Source: Escherichia coli
GTDB taxonomy: Bacteria > Pseudomonadota > Gammaproteobacteria > Enterobacterales > Enterobacteriaceae
Assembly: GCF_030384885.1 (NCBI RefSeq)
Contig: NZ_CP128613.1
Direction: 5' to 3' (one strand)
DNA: 64,000 nucleotides
Below are positions 604 through 10,638 of the stretch, piece by piece; position 1 is the first letter of the stretch; each line of letters starts with the position of its first letter. A program made the translations under genes and the position numbers. The notes below the pieces were generated by a model. That model was not told where the DNA came from and made no database searches. It saw nothing but the letters and a program-made list of their open reading frames with translations.

Positions 604-665
604 ATCGGCGGAACCAGGCTTTTGCTTGAATGTTCCGTCAAGGGATCACGGGTAGGAGCCACCTT

Positions 666-1658
666 ATGAGTCAGAATACGCTGAAAGTTCATGATTTAAA
701 TGAAGATGCGGAATTTGATGAGAACGGAGTTGAGGTTTTTGACGAAAAGGCCTTAGTAGAAGAGGAACCCAGTGATAACGATTTGGCCGAAGAGGAACTG
801 TTATCGCAAGGGGCCACACAGCGTGTGTTGGACGCGACTCAGCTTTACCTTGGTGAGATTGGTTATTCACCACTGTTAACGGCCGAAGAAGAAGTTTATT
901 TTGCGCGTCGCGCACTGCGAGGAGATGTTGCCTCCCGCCGCCGGATGATCGAGAGTAACTTGCGTCTGGTGGTAAAAATTGCCCGCCGTTATGGCAATCG
1001 TGGTCTGGCTTTGCTGGATCTTATCGAAGAGGGCAACCTGGGGCTGATCCGCGCGGTAGAGAAGTTTGACCCGGAACGTGGTTTCCGCTTCTCAACATAC
1101 GCAACCTGGTGGATTCGCCAGACGATCGAACGGGCGATTATGAACCAAACCCGTACTATTCGTTTGCCGATTCACATCGTAAAGGAGCTGAACGTTTACC
1201 TGCGAACCGCACGTGAGTTGTCCCATAAGCTGGACCACGAACCAAGTGCGGAAGAGATCGCAGAGCAGCTGGATAAGCCAGTTGATGACGTCAGCCGTAT
1301 GCTTCGTCTTAACGAGCGCATTACCTCGGTAGACACCCCGCTGGGTGGAGATTCCGAAAAAGCGTTGCTGGACATCCTGGCCGATGAAAAAGAAAACGGC
1401 CCGGAAGACACCACGCAAGATGACGATATGAAACAAAGCATCGTCAAATGGCTGTTCGAACTGAACGCCAAGCAGCGTGAAGTGCTGGCACGTCGATTCG
1501 GTTTGCTGGGATACGAAGCGGCAACACTGGAAGATGTAGGTCGTGAAATTGGCCTCACCCGTGAACGTGTTCGCCAGATTCAGGTTGAAGGCCTGCGCCG
1601 TTTGCGCGAAATCCTGCAAACGCAGGGGCTGAATATCGAAGCGCTGTTCCGCGAATAA
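666..1658 (+). CDS. rpoS: RNA polymerase sigma factor RpoS (sigma-38), 330 aa, full length
   Basis: Protein begins [21 protein letters not shown], recognisable as RpoS; start taken at internal ATG of the longer track ORF (630..1658). Confidence 0.95.
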
Positions 1659-1674
1659 GTAAGCATCTGTCAGA

Positions 1675-1708
1675 AAGGCCAGTCTCTTATGAGGCTGGCC
1701 TTTTTCTT
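1675..1708 (+). terminator. Rho-independent terminator after rpoS
   Basis: GC-rich hairpin ggccagtctc/gaggctggcc (1677..1700) followed by TTTTTCTTTT. Confidence 0.7.
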
Positions 1709-1778
1709 TTGTATGGGGAGTTGGTGTGTTTCGTCGCCTGGATAAGACACGTCAGCGTCCCATCCGGCAATCAACATC

Positions 1779-2186
1779 CTATTTGCTCATCATCTTGCGC
1801 ACCAGCTGCATAAACAGCTCCTGCTCTTCTCCACTCAAACGCCCCAAAAATTCCTCATCCACACTGTCGCCAATCGGTATCGCCGCAGCAAGTACCTTTT
1901 CTCCTTCGGCAGTCAGCCAGACAAAGCGTCGCCGCTTATCAGCGGTGTCATGTTCACGTCTGACTAAGCCACGATTTTCCATTCTTGCCAACATTTCTGC
2001 CAGCGTTGCTTTGGTGCTGACGGCTGCTTCCATCAGTGCCACCTGTTCGATACCAGGTTTATCAGCAATGGCGCGCATCACCGCGTACTGTGGTTTGGTC
2101 AGGTCAGGTAACTCGTGCTGCCAGCGGGCCGTATGCTGCTGAAAAAGCTGTCGTAACTGATGGAACGCTTTATTTCGTAACGCCAT
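1779..2186 (-). CDS. MarR/SlyA-family transcriptional regulator, 135 aa
   Basis: Size and winged-helix region typical of MarR family; divergent from the decarboxylase genes. Confidence 0.75.
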   Translation of the reverse strand: MALRNKAFHQLRQLFQQHTARWQHELPDLTKPQYAVMRAIADKPGIEQVALMEAAVSTKATLAEMLARMENRGLVRREHDTADKRRRFVWLTAEGEKVLAAAIPIGDSVDEEFLGRLSGEEQELFMQLVRKMMSK

Positions 2187-2301
2187 GTAAACTCCGGGCT
2201 AATTCTCTGTCGCTATCATAGCGGTTTTTCAGTGACGAAGAAGATGTTGTTACTTTTCAATCCTTGCCGCTGTGGAAATGAAGGAGTATGTTAATAATAA
2301 C

Positions 2302-2315
2302 GTTCGTATACGAAC
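2302..2315. promoter_or_regulatory. Perfect 14-bp palindrome GTTCGTATACGAAC, candidate MarR-type operator upstream of ecdB
   Basis: Read directly; lies 18 bp upstream of the ecdB ATG in the divergent intergenic region. Confidence 0.4.
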
Positions 2316-2332
2316 AATTAAGAGAGTAAGCA

Positions 2333-2926
2333 ATGAAACTGATCGTCGGGATGACAGGGGCTACCGGTGCGCCTCTTGGTGTGGCATTACTGCAAGCGCT
2401 GCGGGAGATGCCGAATGTCGAGACTCATCTGGTGATGTCGAAGTGGGCGAAAACCACTATTGAACTGGAAACGCCTTACAGCGCTCGCGATGTTGCCGCC
2501 CTCGCTGACTTCAGCCATAACCCGGCAGATCAGGCTGCGACCATCTCTTCCGGCTCCTTTCGTACCGACGGCATGATCGTTATTCCATGCAGTATGAAAA
2601 CGCTCGCCGGTATCCGCGCTGGTTACGCCGATGGTCTCGTAGGGCGCGCGGCGGACGTCGTGCTCAAAGAAGGCCGCAAACTGGTGCTGGTGCCGCGTGA
2701 AATGCCGCTTAGCACCATCCATCTCGAAAATATGCTCGCACTTTCGCGCATGGGCGTGGCGATGGTGCCGCCGATGCCTGCCTTTTATAACCATCCCGAA
2801 ACGGTAGATGACATTGTCCACCACGTGGTAGCCCGCGTGCTGGATCAATTTGGCCTCGAACATCCTCACGCCAGGCGCTGGCAAGGGTTGCCGCAGGCCC
2901 GGAATTTTTCTCAGGAGAATGAATAA
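2333..2926 (+). CDS. ecdB: UbiX-like flavin prenyltransferase (phenolic acid decarboxylase subunit B), 197 aa
   Basis: N-terminal MKLIVGMTGATGA flavoprotein motif and UbiX/Pad1 length; first gene of a B-C-D operon. Confidence 0.8.
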   Translation: MKLIVGMTGATGAPLGVALLQALREMPNVETHLVMSKWAKTTIELETPYSARDVAALADFSHNPADQAATISSGSFRTDGMIVIPCSMKTLAGIRAGYADGLVGRAADVVLKEGRKLVLVPREMPLSTIHLENMLALSRMGVAMVPPMPAFYNHPETVDDIVHHVVARVLDQFGLEHPHARRWQGLPQARNFSQENE

Positions 2927-4353
2927 TGGCATTTGATGATTTACGCAGCTTCTTACAGGCGCTTGATGACCACGGCCAGTTACTGAAAATCAGCGAAGAG
3001 GTGAACGCGGAACCGGATCTGGCAGCCGCTGCCAACGCCACCGGGCGTATCGGCGACGGCGCGCCCGCGCTGTGGTTTGATAATATTCGCGGCTTTATCG
3101 ATGCCCGCGTTGCAATGAACACCATCGGTTCTTGGCAGAACCACGCAATTTCTCTCGGTCTGCCGCCAAACACCCCGGTTAAAAAACAGATTGATGAGTT
3201 TATCCGCCGCTGGGATAACTTCCCGATAGCCCCGGAGCGCCGTGCGAATCCTGCCTGGGCGCAGAACACCGTCGATGGCGACGAGATCAATTTGTTCAAT
3301 ATCCTGCCGCTGTTTCGTTTAAACGATGGCGATGGCGGTTTCTATCTCGACAAAGCGTGCGTGGTTTCCCGCGATCCGCTCGATCCGGATAACTTCGGCA
3401 AGCAGAACGTCGGCATCTATCGCATGGAAGTGAAGGGTAAGCGTAAGCTCGGCCTGCAACCGGTGCCGATGCACGATATCGCCCTGCATCTGCATAAAGC
3501 GGAAGAACGTGGTGAAGATTTGCCAATTGCCATCACGCTGGGTAACGATCCGATCATCACCCTGATGGGCGCCACCCCGCTGAAATATGATCAATCGGAG
3601 TACGAAATGGCGGGCGCGCTACGCGAAAGCCCGTACCCGATCGCCACCGCCCCGCTGACCGGTTTTGATGTGCCGTGGGGTTCAGAAGTGATCCTCGAAG
3701 GGGTTATCGAAAGCCGCAAACGTGAAATCGAAGGGCCGTTCGGTGAGTTTACCGGGCACTACTCCGGTGGGCGCAACATGACCGTAGTGCGCATCGATAA
3801 AGTCTCTTACCGCACCAAACCGATTTTTGAATCGCTCTATCTCGGCATGCCGTGGACCGAAATCGACTACCTGATGGGGCCTGCCACCTGCGTGCCGCTT
3901 TACCAGCAGTTGAAAGCCGAGTTCCCGGAAGTGCAGGCGGTGAACGCTATGTACACCCACGGCCTGCTGGCGATTATCTCCACCAAAAAACGCTATGGCG
4001 GCTTTGCCCGCGCAGTGGGCCTGCGTGCGATGACCACGCCGCACGGTCTGGGTTATGTGAAGATGGTGATTATGGTCGATGAAGACGTTGACCCGTTCAA
4101 CCTGCCGCAGGTGATGTGGGCGCTCTCGTCGAAAGTGAACCCGGCAGGCGATCTGGTGCAACTGCCAAATATGTCCGTGCTGGAACTCGACCCAGGCTCA
4201 AGCCCGGCGGGGATCACCGATAAGCTGATTATCGACGCCACCACGCCTGTCGCCCCGGACAACCGTGGTCACTACAGCCAGCCGGTGGTGGACTTACCGG
4301 AAACCAAAGCCTGGGCTGAAAAACTGACCGCTATGCTGGCCGCACGTAAATAA
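2926..4353 (+). CDS. ecdC: UbiD-family phenolic acid (4-hydroxybenzoate/vanillate-type) decarboxylase subunit C, 475 aa
   Basis: UbiD-family size and sequence character; start overlaps ecdB stop (translational coupling). Confidence 0.8.
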   Translation: MAFDDLRSFLQALDDHGQLLKISEEVNAEPDLAAAANATGRIGDGAPALWFDNIRGFIDARVAMNTIGSWQNHAISLGLPPNTPVKKQIDEFIRRWDNFPIAPERRANPAWAQNTVDGDEINLFNILPLFRLNDGDGGFYLDKACVVSRDPLDPDNFGKQNVGIYRMEVKGKRKLGLQPVPMHDIALHLHKAEERGEDLPIAITLGNDPIITLMGATPLKYDQSEYEMAGALRESPYPIATAPLTGFDVPWGSEVILEGVIESRKREIEGPFGEFTGHYSGGRNMTVVRIDKVSYRTKPIFESLYLGMPWTEIDYLMGPATCVPLYQQLKAEFPEVQAVNAMYTHGLLAIISTKKRYGGFARAVGLRAMTTPHGLGYVKMVIMVDEDVDPFNLPQVMWALSSKVNPAGDLVQLPNMSVLELDPGSSPAGITDKLIIDATTPVAPDNRGHYSQPVVDLPETKAWAEKLTAMLAARK

Positions 4354-4363
4354 GGAGAACAAG

Positions 4364-4600
4364 ATGATTTGTCCACGTTGTGCCGATGAACAGATTGAAG
4401 TGATGGCGAAATCGCCGGTGAAAAATGTCTGGACGGTCTACCAGTGCCAGCATTGCCTTTATACATGGCGCGATACTGAACCGCTACGTCGCACCAGCCG
4501 CGAACATTATCCCGAAGCCTTCCGTATGACGCAGAAAGATATTGATGACGCACCGATGGTGCCGAGCATTCCGCCGCTGCTGGCGGAAGGTAAGCGCTAA
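4364..4600 (+). CDS. ecdD: Small decarboxylase subunit D (BsdD/YclD-like), 78 aa, Cys-rich
   Basis: Small ORF with CPRC ... CQHC motifs immediately after the UbiD gene, as in bsdBCD-type operons. Confidence 0.65.
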   Translation: MICPRCADEQIEVMAKSPVKNVWTVYQCQHCLYTWRDTEPLRRTSREHYPEAFRMTQKDIDDAPMVPSIPPLLAEGKR

Positions 4601-4602
4601 AT

Positions 4603-4631
4603 AAAAGGTCCGATGCCCATCGGACCTTTTT
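4603..4631. terminator. Bidirectional rho-independent terminator between convergent ecdD and ygbN
   Basis: Stem ggtccgat/atcggacc with loop gccc, flanked by AAAA and TTTTT. Confidence 0.7.
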
Positions 4632-4638
4632 ATTAAGG

Positions 4639-6003
4639 TCAAATTACCGCCCATACGCACCAGGTAATTAAGAATCCGGTAAAACCGAGAATGGTCGTTA
4701 ACACTGTCCAGGTTTTCAGACCGTCTGCTACCGACAACCCCAGATATTTGGTCACAATCCAGAACCCTGAGTCATTAATATGTGACGCGCCAAGCCCACC
4801 AAAGCAGGCTGCCAGCGTCACCAATACGCACTGAATCGGATTCAATCCCATCACAGCTTCTGAGAGTAACCCGCCGGTTGTCAGGATTGCTACGGTTGCT
4901 GACCCCTGCGATGCACGCAGCGCCAGTGAAATAATAAATGCGGCTGGTAACAGAGGCAGGTCAATCATTTGTAGCATGTTGGCAAGGGCTTTGCCGACGC
5001 CCGATTCCACCAGCACTTTGCCAAATACCCCTCCAGCACCAGTAACCAAAATCACTACCGCCGCAGTGGGAAGGGCTGAGCCCATAATGTCGCTGGTGTG
5101 TTGTAAGCTCCAGCCGCGACGTAAAGCCAATAACCAGAATGCCAGCACCAGCGCAATCATTAGAGCTACCATTGGTGAGCCGATCAGCTGTAGCGTACCA
5201 AGCAGGGGATGCGAAGGCGGCATCAGTGTTGCGGAAACCGTACCCGCCATGATAATCGCGATAGGAATAACAATTAGCGAGGTGACCAGCGCGACGCCCG
5301 GTGGATTTATTTTATCGCTTAATTTTGTCGCGCCTTCCTCACTGGCCGGAGCCAGTTGCATCTGTTCCAGTACTTCCACCGACATCGCATATTGGCGCTT
5401 ATTGATTATTTTCGCTGCAAAGTAGCCAACAATCCCTACGGGAATAGAAATCGCAATACCGATGATGGTTAGCCAGCCGATGTCTGCGTGGAGTAACCCC
5501 GCTGCGGCGACAGGGCCTGGATGCGGCGGTACCGCCACATGAACAGTTAGCATGATTCCAGCGACAGGCAGGCCAAATTTGAGTGGCGATATTTTGGCAA
5601 CCTTGGCAAAACCGTAAATGATTGGCGCAAGAATAATAAAGCCGACATCAAAGAAGACGGGAATACCGAGGAAGAACGCTGCCAGAGTCAGCGCAGCGAT
5701 AGTTCGTTTGTCACCTAACTTGCGACTGAAATAATTAGCCAGTGACTCTGCACCACCAGAGTGTTCGATCATACGCCCCAGCATAGCGCCCAGACCAATA
5801 ATAATAGTGACGGAACCAAGCACACCGCCCATCCCGGCGATCATCACTTTACCCACTTCGCCCGCCGGTATACCCGCCGCAAGTGCGACTAACAGGCTGA
5901 CGAGGAGCAGAGCAACGAATGGTTGTACCTTTGCCTTGATGACCAGCAGCAACAGCATGATTACGCCAGTTAACGCAATGCATAACAATGTAATTGTGGA
6001 CAT
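4639..6003 (-). CDS. ygbN: GntP-family permease (putative threonate/tetronate transporter), 454 aa
   Basis: Polytopic membrane protein of GntP type; position and length match ygbN. Confidence 0.85.
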   Translation of the reverse strand: MSTITLLCIALTGVIMLLLLVIKAKVQPFVALLLVSLLVALAAGIPAGEVGKVMIAGMGGVLGSVTIIIGLGAMLGRMIEHSGGAESLANYFSRKLGDKRTIAALTLAAFFLGIPVFFDVGFIILAPIIYGFAKVAKISPLKFGLPVAGIMLTVHVAVPPHPGPVAAAGLLHADIGWLTIIGIAISIPVGIVGYFAAKIINKRQYAMSVEVLEQMQLAPASEEGATKLSDKINPPGVALVTSLIVIPIAIIMAGTVSATLMPPSHPLLGTLQLIGSPMVALMIALVLAFWLLALRRGWSLQHTSDIMGSALPTAAVVILVTGAGGVFGKVLVESGVGKALANMLQMIDLPLLPAAFIISLALRASQGSATVAILTTGGLLSEAVMGLNPIQCVLVTLAACFGGLGASHINDSGFWIVTKYLGLSVADGLKTWTVLTTILGFTGFLITWCVWAVI

Positions 6004-6091
6004 GGGAAACCCTGTCTGAAAGTTATAGTTAACCTACCCCATCCGTAGATGGGGGGATGTATGGGTACGTTGTAATTAGGGATTTAACGAA

Positions 6092-6868
6092 TTAGCGCCA
6101 GGCGTCAAACCAGCCAAGCCCTTCTTCGGTGAGGCCACGAGGTTTATATTCACAACCGATCCAGCCCTGATATCCCACCTCATCGAACAGGCGGAACAGC
6201 CACGGATAGTTGATTTCTCCATCGTCCGGTTCATGTCGATCAGGTAGTCCGGCAATTTGTACGTGCGCATATTTCCCGGCGTAATCGCGGATTAAATGTG
6301 TCAGGTTGCCATCTACTTTTTGCGCATGGAAAGTATCTAGTTGAATAAACACGTTATCTCGCGCAACCTCTTCAACAATAGCCAGTGCCTGATACTGGCT
6401 GGAGAAGAGATAATGAGGCTTAACGCCGGGGCTGAGTGCTTCAACCAATATTCGCTTGCCGTGTGGCGCAAAGCGGTCGGCAGCGTAGCGGAGATTATCA
6501 ATAAATACTGCCCGGTACCGTTCAGCATCTTCGCCAGCGGGCACGACGCCTGCCATCACATGGACTTGTTCACAATTGAGCGCCAATGCATATTCCAGTG
6601 CCAGGTCGATGTCTGCGCGTGCTTCGTGCTCACGTCCAGGAAGGGCGGATAATCCCCATTCTCCCGCATTAATATCTCCGGGAGCGGTATTGAACAGCGC
6701 CAGTGTCAGATGGTTTTGCACCAGTTGCTTTTGGATTTGCAGGGGGGAGTAGTCATAGGGAAACAGAAATTCCACAGCATCGAACCCGGCTTTTCGCGCT
6801 GCGGCGAAGCGTTCAATAAAAGGCACTTCGGTGAACATCATGGATAAATTAGCTGCAAAACGAGGCAT
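6092..6868 (-). CDS. ygbM: Hydroxypyruvate-isomerase-like TIM-barrel enzyme (2-oxo-tetronate isomerase), 258 aa
   Basis: Xylose-isomerase-like fold protein in the ygbJKLMN operon position. Confidence 0.85.
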
Positions 6869-6872
6869 TGCA

Positions 6873-7511
6873 TTAACTCCTTAATTCCGCAATTTCACCT
6901 GCGGTCAGATAACGGATCGGGCGGTCACCGAGAATAAAAATCAGCTTTGCCGTTTCCTCCAGCTCTTCCATATTGTTGGCGGCTTCTTGCAGGCTTTCAC
7001 CGCAAACCACTGGGCCATGATTTGCCAGTAAAAAAGCCTGATTGTCTGCTGCCAGTTCCGCCAGATCCTGTGCGATGCGTTTATCGCCCGGTCGGTAATA
7101 GGGCACCAGCGGGACATTACCCATCCGCATCACCACGTATGGTGTGAACGGCCGAATAACGTTATTGCTGTCCAGCCCTTCCAGGCAGGAAAGCGCCGTC
7201 GACCACGTACTGTGCAAATGCACTACCGCTTTACAGCGCGGATTGTTGCGATACAGCGCCAGATGAAAGAGCACCTCTTTCGAGGGTTTGTCACCACTTA
7301 ACCATTCGCCATCCACGGCGACTTTGGAAAGCCGCTGCGGATCGAGATTGCCCAGGCATGAACCTGTCGGTGTCGCCAGTAAATTCCCATCAGGTAAAAG
7401 CAGCGACAGATTGCCAGCCGAACCGGTTGCATAGCCGCGCTGAAAGAATGAACTGGCAATCCGCGTCATCTCCTCTCGCAAAGACTGCTCTACTTTTGCG
7501 AAATCGCTCAT
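6873..7511 (-). CDS. ygbL: Class II aldolase/adducin-family protein (3-oxo-tetronate 4-phosphate decarboxylase), 212 aa
   Basis: Class II aldolase-like sequence; operon position. Confidence 0.85.
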
Positions 7512-8770
7512 GATAAAAACTCTCTTTGGGCTCGTGAAAAAAAGGCTTCATCACCGAAGTTGCCAGATTTAAGGGCGAGTGAGACAGGCTTATCCAGTGC
7601 GTTTACCCACGGCACGCCGGGGGAAATGGTTGGGCCAATATGAAACCCTTTTATTCCCAGGCTCTGTGTGACTACGCCGGAGGTCTCACCGCCTGCGACA
7701 ATAAAGCGTGTCACGCCTTCCGCTGCTAACTGCGCCGCTAGTTGAGAAAACAGTGTTTCTACTGCCTGACTGGCTTTTTGTGCACCGTATTGCTGTTGAA
7801 TTGCTGCCAATGCGTCAGTGCTGGCGGTGGCAAAAACCAGTGGAGCAAGTACACTTTCCTGGCCCAGAACCCACTCTGCCAGCTCGTGTGCATAAGCGGC
7901 CAGAGTTTCAATTGAGAGGCAGCGTGCAACATCAACTTCACGGGCTGGTGCAATTTGACGGTAATGTGCCACCTGGCGGTTGGTCATTTGAGAGCATGAA
8001 CCGGAGAGCACTACGCCGCGCCCTGCGAGCGGACGCCCTGCTTCGCGAGCCTGGTTACCATTTTCTTGCGCCCACTGCCGGGCCAGGCCAATTGCCAGAC
8101 CAGAACCGCCCGTTACCAGTGGGGCATCGCGCAAGGCTTCCCCCTGAATTTCCAGATGGTGTTCGGTCAGCGCATCAAGCACCGCGTAGCGATAGCCCTC
8201 TTGCTGTAAGCGAGCCAGCTCCTGACGAACGGCTTTCACACCTTGTTCGAAAACATGTGCTGAAACGACGCCGCAGCGCCCTGTGGATTGCGCTTCAACC
8301 AGACGGGGAAGATAGCTGTCGGTCATGGGATTTACCGGGTGATGGCGCATCCCGGATTCGGCCAGCAGTTGATTCATTACGAACAAATACCCCTGATAAA
8401 CCGTACGTCCGTTGACCGGCAGGGCCGGAGAGAAGACCGTAAACGGCGTGTCGAGAGCATCCATTAATGCATCGGTAACCGGGCCGATATTACCTTTCGC
8501 CGTACTGTCGAAAGTAGAGCAGTATTTGAAATAGATCTGTTTGCAACCTTGCTGTTGCAACCAGCTCAGAGCCGCCAGCGATTGCTGTGTGGCTTCAACC
8601 ACCGGACAGGAGCGCGTTTTCAGGCTGATCACCAGTGCGTCGATTGCTTCCGGCATTTTACCTGTTGGAACACCGTTAATTTGTACCGTTGGTAGACCGT
8701 TTTCCACCAGAAAACTGGCGATATCCGTCGCGCCGGTAAAATCATCGGCGATAACGCCAATCTTGATCAT
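7508..8770 (-). CDS. ygbK: Four-carbon acid sugar kinase (3-oxo-tetronate kinase), 420 aa as read
   Basis: N-terminal IADDFTGATD motif typical of this kinase family; start not verified against K-12 length. Confidence 0.8.
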   Translation of the reverse strand: MIKIGVIADDFTGATDIASFLVENGLPTVQINGVPTGKMPEAIDALVISLKTRSCPVVEATQQSLAALSWLQQQGCKQIYFKYCSTFDSTAKGNIGPVTDALMDALDTPFTVFSPALPVNGRTVYQGYLFVMNQLLAESGMRHHPVNPMTDSYLPRLVEAQSTGRCGVVSAHVFEQGVKAVRQELARLQQEGYRYAVLDALTEHHLEIQGEALRDAPLVTGGSGLAIGLARQWAQENGNQAREAGRPLAGRGVVLSGSCSQMTNRQVAHYRQIAPAREVDVARCLSIETLAAYAHELAEWVLGQESVLAPLVFATASTDALAAIQQQYGAQKASQAVETLFSQLAAQLAAEGVTRFIVAGGETSGVVTQSLGIKGFHIGPTISPGVPWVNALDKPVSLALKSGNFGDEAFFSRAQREFLS

Positions 8771-9675
8771 GATTTCGCTCCCGGTAGAGTGATGCCAGAG
8801 AAAATCTTGATAACTGCGCTATCGTCTTCTTTCCCGTAACCCGCGTTACTGGCGCTGGTGAACATATTCAATGCTGTTGAGGCCAATGGCAGCGGAAAGT
8901 GCAGGGCTTTGGCTGTATCGGCAACCAGACCAAGATCCTTAACAAAAATATCGACGGCTGAATGCGGGGTGTAATCGCCATCCACCACATGACGCATCCG
9001 GTTTTCGAACATCCAGGAATTTCCGGCGGCATTGGTCACGACGTCATACATCACATCCAGCGGGATCCCCGCACGGGCTGCAAGTGCCATCGCTTCGGCT
9101 CCGGCAGCAATATGTACGCCCGCTAACAACTGGTGAATAATTTTTACGGTCGAACCTAGTCCCGGTTCTGCACCTATGCGATAAACTTTTCCGGCAACGG
9201 CTTCCAGCACGGGTGCCAGTCGTTCAAAGGCAATATCGCTACCGGAGGCCATGACAGTCATTTCACCGTTAGCGGCTTTTACTGCACCACCAGAAACTGG
9301 CGCATCCAGCATTTCCAGATCGAATCCAGCCAGAGCGGTAGCAATTTCTTGCGCATCAGCACTGGCGATAGTGGAAGAAACCATTACTGCCGTACCGGGT
9401 TTCAGATGTTGTGCAACGCCTGTTTCACCAAACAGCACCTGTTTAACCTGGGCCGCATTGACCACCAGCACCAGCAGAGCGTCCAGTTTTTCGGCAAACG
9501 TCGCGGCGTTATCAGAAACCCCGCAAGCACCTGCCTCTTTCAACGTAGCGCAGGCATTGCTGTTTAGGTCTGCGCCCCAGGTAGAAAGACCTGCGCGGAC
9601 ACATGACAGTGCTGCTCCCATTCCCATTGACCCTAAGCCAACGATACCGACATGAAACTCAGATCCCGTTTTCAT
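8767..9675 (-). CDS. ygbJ: NAD-dependent 3-hydroxyisobutyrate-dehydrogenase-like enzyme (L-threonate dehydrogenase), 302 aa
   Basis: N-terminal GxxGxxG Rossmann motif (VGIVGLGSMG); operon position. Confidence 0.85.
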   Translation of the reverse strand: MKTGSEFHVGIVGLGSMGMGAALSCVRAGLSTWGADLNSNACATLKEAGACGVSDNAATFAEKLDALLVLVVNAAQVKQVLFGETGVAQHLKPGTAVMVSSTIASADAQEIATALAGFDLEMLDAPVSGGAVKAANGEMTVMASGSDIAFERLAPVLEAVAGKVYRIGAEPGLGSTVKIIHQLLAGVHIAAGAEAMALAARAGIPLDVMYDVVTNAAGNSWMFENRMRHVVDGDYTPHSAVDIFVKDLGLVADTAKALHFPLPLASTALNMFTSASNAGYGKEDDSAVIKIFSGITLPGAKS

Positions 9676-9870
9676 CTGCTCTCCTTGTTAATTTAAGTGA
9701 TATTTTGTTTGATAATGTGAATATAAGCGCTGGAAGATAACGATATGGTGAGCTGATTCACAAAAATTAACATTGTGTGTTATTTTATGTGAACTAAGCG
9801 TTAGTTGCGCCGCGCACGTTTCGCAGGCAAATAGCGTAGAATGTCAGCAGGACAAAGGAAGGAGCAAAAG

Positions 9871-10638
9871 TTGATACCCGTAGAGCGTCGCCAAATCATC
9901 CTTGAGATGGTAGCTGAAAAAGGCATTGTCAGTATTGCTGAACTAACGGACAGAATGAATGTGTCACATATGACCATTCGTCGGGATTTACAAAAACTGG
10001 AGCAGCAGGGAGCCGTTGTGCTGGTGTCCGGAGGCGTCCAGTCTCCGGGACGCGTGGCGCATGAACCTTCTCATCAGGTAAAAACTGCGCTGGCAATGAC
10101 GCAAAAAGCGGCTATTGGCAAGCTGGCGGCAAGTCTTGTTCAGCCGGGAAGTTGTATCTATCTGGATGCGGGAACGACCACGCTAGCGATAGCACAGCAT
10201 CTGATTCACATGGAGTCACTGACTGTGGTCACAAACGATTTCGTTATTGCGGACTACTTGCTCGACAACAGTAATTGCACAATTATTCACACTGGCGGTG
10301 CAGTATGTCGGGAAAACCGTTCCTGTGTCGGGGAAGCCGCTGCGACCATGCTGCGCAGCCTGATGATTGATCAGGCTTTTATTTCTGCATCGTCATGGAG
10401 TGTGCGGGGGATTTCTACGCCAGCGGAAGATAAAGTCACGGTGAAACGGGCGATTGCCAGTGCCAGCCGCCAGCGAGTTTTGGTCTGTGATGCGACGAAA
10501 TATGGTCAGGTGGCGACATGGCTGGCGTTACCATTAAGCGAGTTTGATCAGATTATTACAGACGACGGTTTGCCGGAGAGTGCCAGTCGCGCGCTGGCGA
10601 AGCAGGATCTCTCTTTGCTGGTAGCGAAAAATGAATAA
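9871..10638 (+). CDS. ygbI: DeoR-family transcriptional regulator, 255 aa from a TTG start
   Basis: DeoR HTH N-terminus; AAGGAAGGA RBS upstream of TTG at 9871; the longer track ORF starts at 9841. Confidence 0.75.
   Translation: MIPVERRQIILEMVAEKGIVSIAELTDRMNVSHMTIRRDLQKLEQQGAVVLVSGGVQSPGRVAHEPSHQVKTALAMTQKAAIGKLAASLVQPGSCIYLDAGTTTLAIAQHLIHMESLTVVTNDFVIADYLLDNSNCTIIHTGGAVCRENRSCVGEAAATMLRSLMIDQAFISASSWSVRGISTPAEDKVTVKRAIASASRQRVLVCDATKYGQVATWLALPLSEFDQIITDDGLPESASRALAKQDLSLLVAKNE

Follow-up and report, generated by a model that had tools for sequence, protein, structure and literature searches.

Comparison with related sequences indicates that the gap between ygbM (otnI) and ygbN of Escherichia coli encodes a real, evolutionarily conserved RNA hairpin, here called H1. 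We see about an even chance that this hairpin, carried on the ltnD-otnK-otnC-otnI-ygbN transcript, is a barrier to RNA decay which uncouples transporter mRNA from enzyme mRNA; in the same reading, H1 would mark the 5' edge of the ygbN translation-initiation region. The analysis was made on a stretch of 64,000 nt of contig NZ_CP128613.1, referred to as the window, and its features are listed in Table 1.

Table 1. Features of the ygb/otn cluster around hairpin H1 in the window
Feature	Position	Strand	Basis or remark
ygbI, divergent from the ltnD cluster	9841-10638		ORF; K-12-like record annotation
ltnD	8767-9675	-	ORF; K-12-like record annotation
otnK	7508-8770	-	ORF; K-12-like record annotation
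otnC	6873-7511	-	ORF; K-12-like record annotation
ygbM = otnI, 2-oxo-tetronate isomerase	6092-6868	-	ORF; K-12-like record annotation; PF01261; NF043033 above cut-off
ygbM-ygbN (otnI-ygbN) gap	6004-6091	-	88 nt between ORFs
5' part of gap, fast-evolving, straight after ygbM stop	6058-6091	-	variable sites and comparison with Citrobacter plasmid
hairpin H1	6037-6054	-	sequence; 3' foot at -34 from ygbN AUG
ygbN leader, 33 nt, AU-rich, hairpin foot to AUG	6004-6036	-	comparison with Citrobacter plasmid
small leader hairpin GACAGGG-UUU-CCC(A)UGUC	5999-6016	-	MFE fold; pair probabilities 0.92-0.99 in 288-nt context
ygbN, GntP-family transporter (permease), downstream cistron	4639-6003	-	ORF; NF007332, PF02447
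bidirectional intrinsic terminator AAAAGGTCCGA-TGCCCA-TCGGACCTTTTT, between convergent vdcD/ecdD and ygbN	4603-4631	.	sequence; among perfect hairpins

An earlier note had placed an inverted repeat at 6037-6054 in this gap, and the sequence reads exactly so, with CCCCATC (6037-6043), cgta (6044-6047) and GATGGGG (6048-6054) on the plus strand forming a perfect 7-bp repeat. The loop given there, cgta, is correct for the plus strand and not for the mRNA: because ygbM and ygbN both lie on the minus strand, the transcript carries CCCCAUC (6054-6048), UACG (6047-6044) and GAUGGGG (6043-6037), and thus an UNCG-type tetraloop closed by a C-G pair. The description of H1 as a GC-rich hairpin without a U-tract is equally apt, with five of the seven pairs being G-C and no U-tract on either strand. 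In the mRNA, H1 is followed by UAGGUUAACU, with no run of U (at least five of eight) 3' of the stem, and a promoter and terminator scan of 4400-10200 gave no promoter-like or terminator-like site within 6004-6091.

The otnI gene closes a run of four tightly packed enzyme genes (ltnD, otnK, otnC and otnI). Its product YgbM is a xylose-isomerase-like TIM barrel protein that passes the 2-oxo-tetronate isomerase model, scoring 395.9 bits against the equivalog NF043033 (cut-off 325). The RefSeq/PGAP label for YgbM is 'HPr family phosphocarrier protein', assigned via NCBIfam NF007441, which looks like a systematic misnomer that has spread to thousands of genomes and plasmids. Downstream of ygbN, the 38-nt gap to vdcD/ecdD is filled by an A-tract, an 8-bp stem (AGGTCCGA/TCGGACCT) and a T-tract, and in contrast to H1 this terminator is predicted from its sequence to be the true 3' end of the ygb transcript. 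H1 itself has the G-C-rich stem-loop of an intrinsic terminator and, because it lacks the U-tract, was rejected as one. In the strain analysed here, rpoS and ygbN are separated by vdcB/vdcC/vdcD (ecdBCD, encoding a UbiX/UbiD-type hydroxyarylic acid decarboxylase) at 630-4600 (+); the two genes adjoin each other in K-12-like genomes, and the region is the known polymorphic mutS-rpoS region.

Both the MFE and the centroid folds contain H1 (RNAfold), with a pair probability of about 0.71 in a 288-nt context. The hairpin alone folds with -12.7 kcal/mol, and the 45 nt ending at its foot with -11.2 to -12.3 kcal/mol. An alternative E. coli fold found in some MFE structures (UACCC/GGGUA with CAUCC/GGAUG) was discarded, as conservation of its upstream arm does not extend to the Citrobacter copy of the cluster. 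Judged by the window alone, H1 does not go beyond chance. The fold of the whole gap has a z-score of -1.18 and its best local fold a p of 0.10 against 300 shuffles, while the window holds 51 perfect hairpins of at least 7 bp with loops of 3-8 nt (29 ± 6 in dinucleotide shuffles), 20 of which have at least five G-C pairs (9.7 in shuffles). The only match of the gap in an Rfam 15 scan (E ≤ 10) was SAM-Chlorobi at 16.8 bits versus a gathering score of 35, which at E = 2.5 is a chance match.

The evidence that sets H1 apart comes from related sequences, among them a set of intermediate lineages. As the top 120 matches in a protein search with E. coli YgbN were all near-identical E. coli entries, the lineages L092-L096 and L098 were those found by a protein search with Entomohabitans YgbN, followed by their encoding contigs; L093-L098 are contigs from public read-set assemblies. 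Their YgbN proteins are 78-88% identical to that of E. coli and all of them have the otnI-ygbN junction, with the cluster adjoining rpoS-nlpD in L094/L095. L094, L093 and L098 carry 4-nt loops at the same place as E. coli on stems of different sequence, namely CCUCAUC/GGUGAGG (loop UCAC) in L094, GCCCUGUG/CACAGGGC (loop UUCG) in L093 and CCCUGUC/GAC(C)GGG (loop GGAU) in L098. The C(UACG)G loop of E. coli, the C(UCCG)G loop of the Citrobacter plasmid copy and the UUCG loop of L093 belong to the UNCG tetraloop hairpins (cUNCGg), unlike the loops of L094 and L098, so that the conserved feature is the stem and its position rather than the tetraloop class.

These sequences were combined by plain MAFFT in an alignment (A4) of seven rows, of which four are near-identical and three come from read-set assemblies, and the E. 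coli helix was used to score it. All 49 of the 49 cells are paired, and four of the seven pairs show compensatory changes, with double changes from C-G to U-A (two pairs), from A-U to G-C (two sequences) and from C-G to G-C. The covariation score of 0.449 compares with 0.231 ± 0.049 in shuffles, none of 500 of which reached it, these being controls rather than probabilities. When the 3' partners were slid by one to three columns, pairing fell to 33-70% of cells, and RNAalifold returned the H1 helix independently and unprompted. Two G.U cells of the alignment would be A.C mismatches on the opposite strand, which points to the sense transcript as the strand that folds. The comparison indicates that H1 is under selection as an RNA structure.

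Further lineages have unrelated stems at the place of H1: UCUUUGCC-CGGGA-GGCGAAGA in Entomohabitans, a variant of it in L092, 14 bp in L096, a bulged 13-bp stem in Serratia and 12-13 bp in Gallibacterium. With the sequences aligned on the ygbN AUG, the 3' foot lies at -34 in E. coli, E. marmotae, E. albertii, the Citrobacter plasmid, L094, Entomohabitans and L092, at -33 in L093 and the inner helix of L098, at -31 in Serratia and Gallibacterium and at -28 in L096. The distance from foot to AUG thus spans 28-34 nt, and that from the ygbM stop to the hairpin 29-169 nt. A strict detector (contiguous stem of at least 6 bp, loop of 3-6 nt, -6 kcal/mol or lower, foot between -26 and -36) found a hairpin in 6 of 11 lineages versus 0.2 expected from shuffles, at a nominal P of 6e-9 which is overstated owing to common ancestry among some of the lineages; the bulged hairpins of L098 and Serratia escape this detector. 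This hairpin-to-start-codon distance, kept while the stem sequence turned over completely, is the one mildly unusual feature of H1.

The hairpin is not universal in such clusters. The K. pneumoniae-type cluster has a 57-nt gap without a hairpin and Pantoea sp. A4 has one 78 nt upstream, followed by a weak U-run, so that H1 is dispensable in some lineages. Actinobacillus has a genuine U-tract terminator at the otnI-ygbN junction, 20 nt ahead of the AUG. A ygbN-like gene of Pantoea SOD02 (L091), which lies outside the cluster, showed no hairpin at -34 and is uninformative. The otnI-ygbN gap of L092 is 223 nt long (L092:2278-2500) and includes a decayed gene start, ATGCACATCATCATCACCGGCGGGGGCGGCTGA, resembling an epimerase-like ORF located immediately after otnI in Salmonella enterica subsp. 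diarizonae (L006); this insertion lies upstream of the hairpin, and the distance between hairpin and AUG is unchanged.

Complete ygbI-ltnD-otnK-otnC-otnI-ygbN clusters are also found on IncF plasmids of Citrobacter, Enterobacter and Klebsiella. Such plasmid clusters (L088, NZ_CP055091.1; L089, NZ_CP022350.1, pK516_NDM1) adjoin an integrase gene and ccdAB, and about 88 plasmid records were counted; on many resistance plasmids just a 5'-truncated ygbN is left, and the annotation places a copy of ISSen4 about 0.9 kb ahead of it. At synonymous sites, E. coli and the Citrobacter plasmid differ by about 0.55, with values of 0.51-0.61 at the 4-fold degenerate sites of all five genes, from which we conclude an old divergence and not a recent transfer. 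Across this divergence, the C-run with H1 is identical at 20 of 21 positions, the only change being UACG to UCCG at the free position of the tetraloop. The ygbN leader is identical at 31 of 33 positions, as against 56% identity and three alignment gaps in the 5' part of the gap. Over the 6.2 kb of the cluster, conservation peaks in the 60 nt at 5971-6030, and the conserved block around them extends from H1 to about codon 26 of ygbN and not into otnI. Recent horizontal transfer or a gene-conversion tract was rejected as the source of this block: a 4-fold divergence of 0.53 already in the opening quarter of ygbN makes transfer unlikely, although a conversion tract of very short length is formally possible.

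Within E. coli, the gap with H1 was found in about 4,590 (4,589-4,591) of 5,426 complete genomes, once per genome. With a 42-nt query (word size 11, E ≤ 10), H1 mapped to exactly one place in each of 4,591 genomes, 22 of which have one or two mismatches in the 42-nt window around it, and within the window of this study the motif is unique at up to three mismatches. H1 is therefore not a member of a repeat family, and a REP/BIME or other repeat element was rejected on the same grounds. Among the Escherichia variants sampled (the phylogroup B2 type, the ST38/KKa019 type, E. albertii and E. marmotae), all six variable sites upstream of H1 fall within 34 nt of the ygbM stop, H1 has none, and the sole change in the ygbN leader is at -3 in E. 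marmotae. A 201-nt region around the gap is split in only 2 of the 4,591 genomes. In strain OkiPb01711 (L004:2135-3057), the end of a Mu-like prophage (com/mom genes) is inserted at about 6035-6036, directly 3' of the H1 foot, which leaves H1 with ygbM and cuts it off from ygbN.

The ygbN leader contains an SD-like AGGG at 6010-6013 and a weak second hairpin (AGGUUA-ACUA-UAACUU, 6020-6035), a helix also present in the alifold consensus. The small hairpin at 5999-6016 is predicted to sequester both the AGGG and the ygbN AUG; in the Citrobacter copy its CCC is replaced by CUC, with the pairing kept as G.U. In the folding model, ygbN translation may therefore be intrinsically weak. The 3' arm of H1 also holds a mini-ORF, AUG GGG UAG (6034-6042, -), in frame with ygbN; in the Citrobacter plasmid copy (L088:4963-5003) UAG is changed to CAG, which creates an in-frame upstream AUG 13 codons ahead of the annotated ygbN start. 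Without an SD and buried in the stem, this AUG is probably unused. Upstream of the hairpin, the stretch between the ygbM stop and the H1 stem (6055-6091, -) is C-rich and G-poor (16 C and 2 G counted over 41 nt) and hence rut-like, a composition that is an E. coli trait and is not kept in other lineages. A CsrA site, with GGA across the loop and 3' arm of H1 and another GGA in the Entomohabitans loop, was dismissed because GGA is too frequent and its placement inconsistent.

Published expression data bear on the junction. The genes of the cluster are derepressed together via a single YgbI site, with a ChIP-exo peak between ygbI and ygbJ (PMC8464067). The earlier description of ygbM and ygbN as co-oriented operon genes holds in that both are on the minus strand and co-derepressed from one YgbI-controlled promoter (PMC8464067), their operon status being judged by co-derepression and not by a mapped transcript. 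Since the operator is single and distant, this co-derepression points to read-through transcription into ygbN. On deletion of ygbI, the log2 fold-changes are 5.55 (ygbJ), 5.15 (ygbK), 5.09 (ygbL), 4.62 (ygbM) and 3.95 (ygbN), at baseMean values of 842, 927, 284, 306 and 176, respectively (PMC8464067, supplement file 7). Recalculated per kb from these per-gene counts of one study, baseMean is 926, 734, 444, 394 and 129. The ygbN/ygbM ratio per kb is 0.33, or about 0.32 when corrected for the wild-type share, and this roughly 3-fold drop is the largest step in the cluster. The step-down is consistent with a discontinuity at the hairpin, of which H1 would be the cause in the favoured reading. The earlier proposal of a transcript-stabilising or processing element that could give differential expression of the transporter gene is partly supported, by the selected structure (alignment A4) and by the per-kb step of 0.32-0.33 at the junction, while the link between H1 and the step is one that we infer.

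Other published resources were consulted for the junction. Term-seq (Adams 2021, PMC7815308) gives, near ygbN, only the rpoS terminator on the antisense strand; the gap shows no RNA end in those media, under which the operon is silent. The ygb genes are absent from the tables of Dar & Sorek (PLoS Genet, PMC5927463), the supplements of Guzman 2019 have no ygb rows, and the ROSE supplement of in vitro TSS has no ygb entry. Among the papers found to mention both ygbM and ygbN, none concerns the gap or describes a hairpin there. In the window, the ygbI-ygbJ control region (9740-9800, -) contains inverted and direct TTCACA/TGTGAA repeats (GTTCACATAAAA...TTTTTGTGAATC, then TATATTCACATTATC). These repeats are a plausible candidate for the operator of YgbI (DeoR family), matching the single ChIP-exo peak (PMC8464067). 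H1 as a YgbI operator was rejected, as the sole ChIP-exo site lies at ygbI/ygbJ (PMC8464067) and the TTCACA/TGTGAA repeats there have nothing like CCCCATC.

A decay barrier would act as follows, with the nucleases, the order of events and the role of H1 as the cause of the step all put forward here as a proposal. Transcription from the YgbI-controlled ygbJ promoter would run through the gap. With its SD and AUG in the small hairpin, ygbN translation would start poorly, leaving the cistron poorly shielded by ribosomes and open to RNase E cleavage and/or Rho termination. PNPase and RNase II would then trim the upstream fragment to the H1 foot, such that the stable ltnD-otnI enzyme message would end just 3' of GAUGGGG, and any ygbN fragment released by a cut upstream of H1 would carry the hairpin at its 5' end or close to it. 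One promoter would in this way yield less transporter mRNA than enzyme mRNA. Stem-loops lacking a U-tract are known to stop PNPase and RNase II and to define steady-state 3' ends (PMC6061677), and the protective hairpins within differentially decaying operons are often conserved between species (PMC5927463).

The closest known relatives of such an element are the protective 3' stem-loops of the malE-malF type, described for 26 gene pairs (Dar & Sorek 2018, PMC5927463). Like these, H1 is G-C-rich and has no U-tract, lies where the per-kb counts suggest a boundary between an abundant upstream segment and a scarcer downstream membrane-protein cistron, with neither a promoter nor an intrinsic terminator signature at the junction, and is conserved in related bacteria. 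This conservation of structure extends to orthologous operons (alignment A4, with positional analogues in five more lineages) and excludes the Klebsiella-type cluster. Unlike them, H1 is short and weak (7 bp and about -12 kcal/mol versus a median of -18.9), is not a REP element and is known here from its sequence and predicted fold, and keeps its position with respect to the downstream AUG, a trait not described for that class. The folding energies of the 26 protective hairpins mapped there span -8.9 to -30.7 kcal/mol with a median of -18.9 kcal/mol (PMC5927463), and 24 of these hairpins are stronger than H1 with its -11.2 to -12.3 kcal/mol. Several points speak against the barrier: H1 is weak for a protective hairpin, the K. 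pneumoniae-type cluster and Pantoea sp. A4 show that some lineages can dispense with it, alignment A4 is small, its spacing is fixed to the ygbN AUG and not to the ygbM stop, which would suit a function in the ygbN leader no less well, and the RNA-seq step could equally reflect Rho polarity or a short ygbN half-life without any part for H1.

It is this spacing which leads us to keep as the main rival, though an unlikely one, a role of H1 as 5' stabiliser or initiation module of ygbN. Following an RNase E cut within the variable AU-rich or C-rich stretch upstream, H1 would cap a separate ygbN mRNA, block 5'-end-dependent entry of RNase E and frame a single-stranded 30S standby zone before the structured RBS. 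The foot-to-AUG distance is constant at 28-34 nt while that from stop to hairpin varies (29-169 nt), and the conserved block comprises H1, the leader and the first 26 or so codons of ygbN, and not otnI. Position -34 also coincides roughly with the 5' boundary of the mRNA segment covered by the 30S subunit, and the ygbN SD and AUG are predicted to be sequestered. The class of element is documented, with the papB-papA intercistronic hairpin and the ompA 5' stem-loop acting as 5' stabilisers that are made or exposed by RNase E processing (PMC5927463); like the former, H1 is intercistronic, sits just upstream of the downstream RBS and could cap a processed 5' end. In contrast to both, the downstream cistron is here the scarcer one: ygbN is less abundant per kb, opposite to the effect expected of a dominant downstream stabiliser. 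By eye, moreover, no RN|WUU motif for RNase E is evident upstream of H1 in E. coli, with only an AC|UUU downstream. The roles as 3' barrier and as 5' cap are not mutually exclusive.

The step-down at the ygbM-ygbN junction would also be explained by a transcriptional attenuator, H1 causing RNA polymerase to pause or to terminate in part (weakly intrinsic or assisted by Rho/NusG) before ygbN, and both the rut-like 41 nt upstream of H1 in E. coli (16 C, 2 G) and the U-tract terminator of Actinobacillus at the same junction point in this direction. The gntK-gntU stem-loop of the E. coli gntRKU operon is a reported, terminator-like attenuator. That operon resembles the present one in that a gene for a GntP-family transporter comes after an enzyme gene, with an intervening hairpin and reduced expression of the transporter; it differs in that H1 has no U-tract. 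We rate attenuation as distinctly improbable, as no enterobacterial lineage examined has a U-tract after the hairpin, the C-rich stretch is not conserved and a stem of 7 bp that lacks a U-tract should not terminate by itself; furthermore, loss of control at the distant YgbI site still raises ygbN expression 15-fold, and most of its control therefore comes from read-through. Still less probable, to a degree that makes it nearly negligible, is a chance hairpin or REP/BIME-like remnant without function: H1 is unremarkable in the window alone (p about 0.1; 20 similar hairpins) and absent from the Klebsiella-type cluster, but its occurrence once per genome in 4,591 E. coli genomes excludes a repeat family, it has no Rfam match, and covariation and conservation speak against neutrality. 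The least probable reading, to which we give hardly any weight, is that the repeat acts on DNA as the palindromic operator of a dimeric regulator over a weak internal ygbN promoter (TATAAC, 18 bp downstream). Both half-sites are identical between E. coli and the Citrobacter plasmid with only the central spacer differing, the smaller fold-change of ygbN than of the enzyme genes hints at some YgbI-independent expression, and databases give ygbN its own transcription unit (as cited in PMC8464067). Against this, the half-sites are wholly different in L093, L094, L098, Entomohabitans, Serratia and Gallibacterium while pairing is kept, G.U pairs included, which argues against a generic DNA palindrome bound by a protein; the gap has no sigma-70-like promoter, the YgbI ChIP-exo signal is a single site at ygbI/ygbJ (PMC8464067) and the motif is unique in the window. 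Covariation in the compared sequences already largely refutes a DNA site.

The ygb/otn cluster serves the catabolism of L-threonate and D-erythronate and is linked to growth on tartrate. In laboratory E. coli it is cryptic, and its genes are assigned in databases to three units, ygbJK, ygbLM and ygbN. We consider it doubtful, if worth stating, that H1 is one half of a spacing-dependent initiation module, with its foot about 28-34 nt ahead of the AUG, where the 30S footprint has its 5' limit, a leader that is always covered either by structure or by the initiating ribosome, and ygbN ribosome occupancy deciding whether the transporter cistron is cut off from the enzyme message by RNase E. Were this true, it would provide a general rule by which catabolic operons set the ratio of enzyme to transporter, and further cases could be sought genome-wide. 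Most likely, H1 is an ordinary decay-barrier or processing hairpin of an already known class, its function being predicted from sequence, and no general concept is changed. In the favoured reading as a decay barrier, H1 would add a non-REP, intergenic example to the elements of differential decay. It is a concrete candidate for the cis-element by which transporter message is kept lower than enzyme message from a single YgbI-controlled promoter, and may be useful for operon engineering and for the annotation of transcription units.
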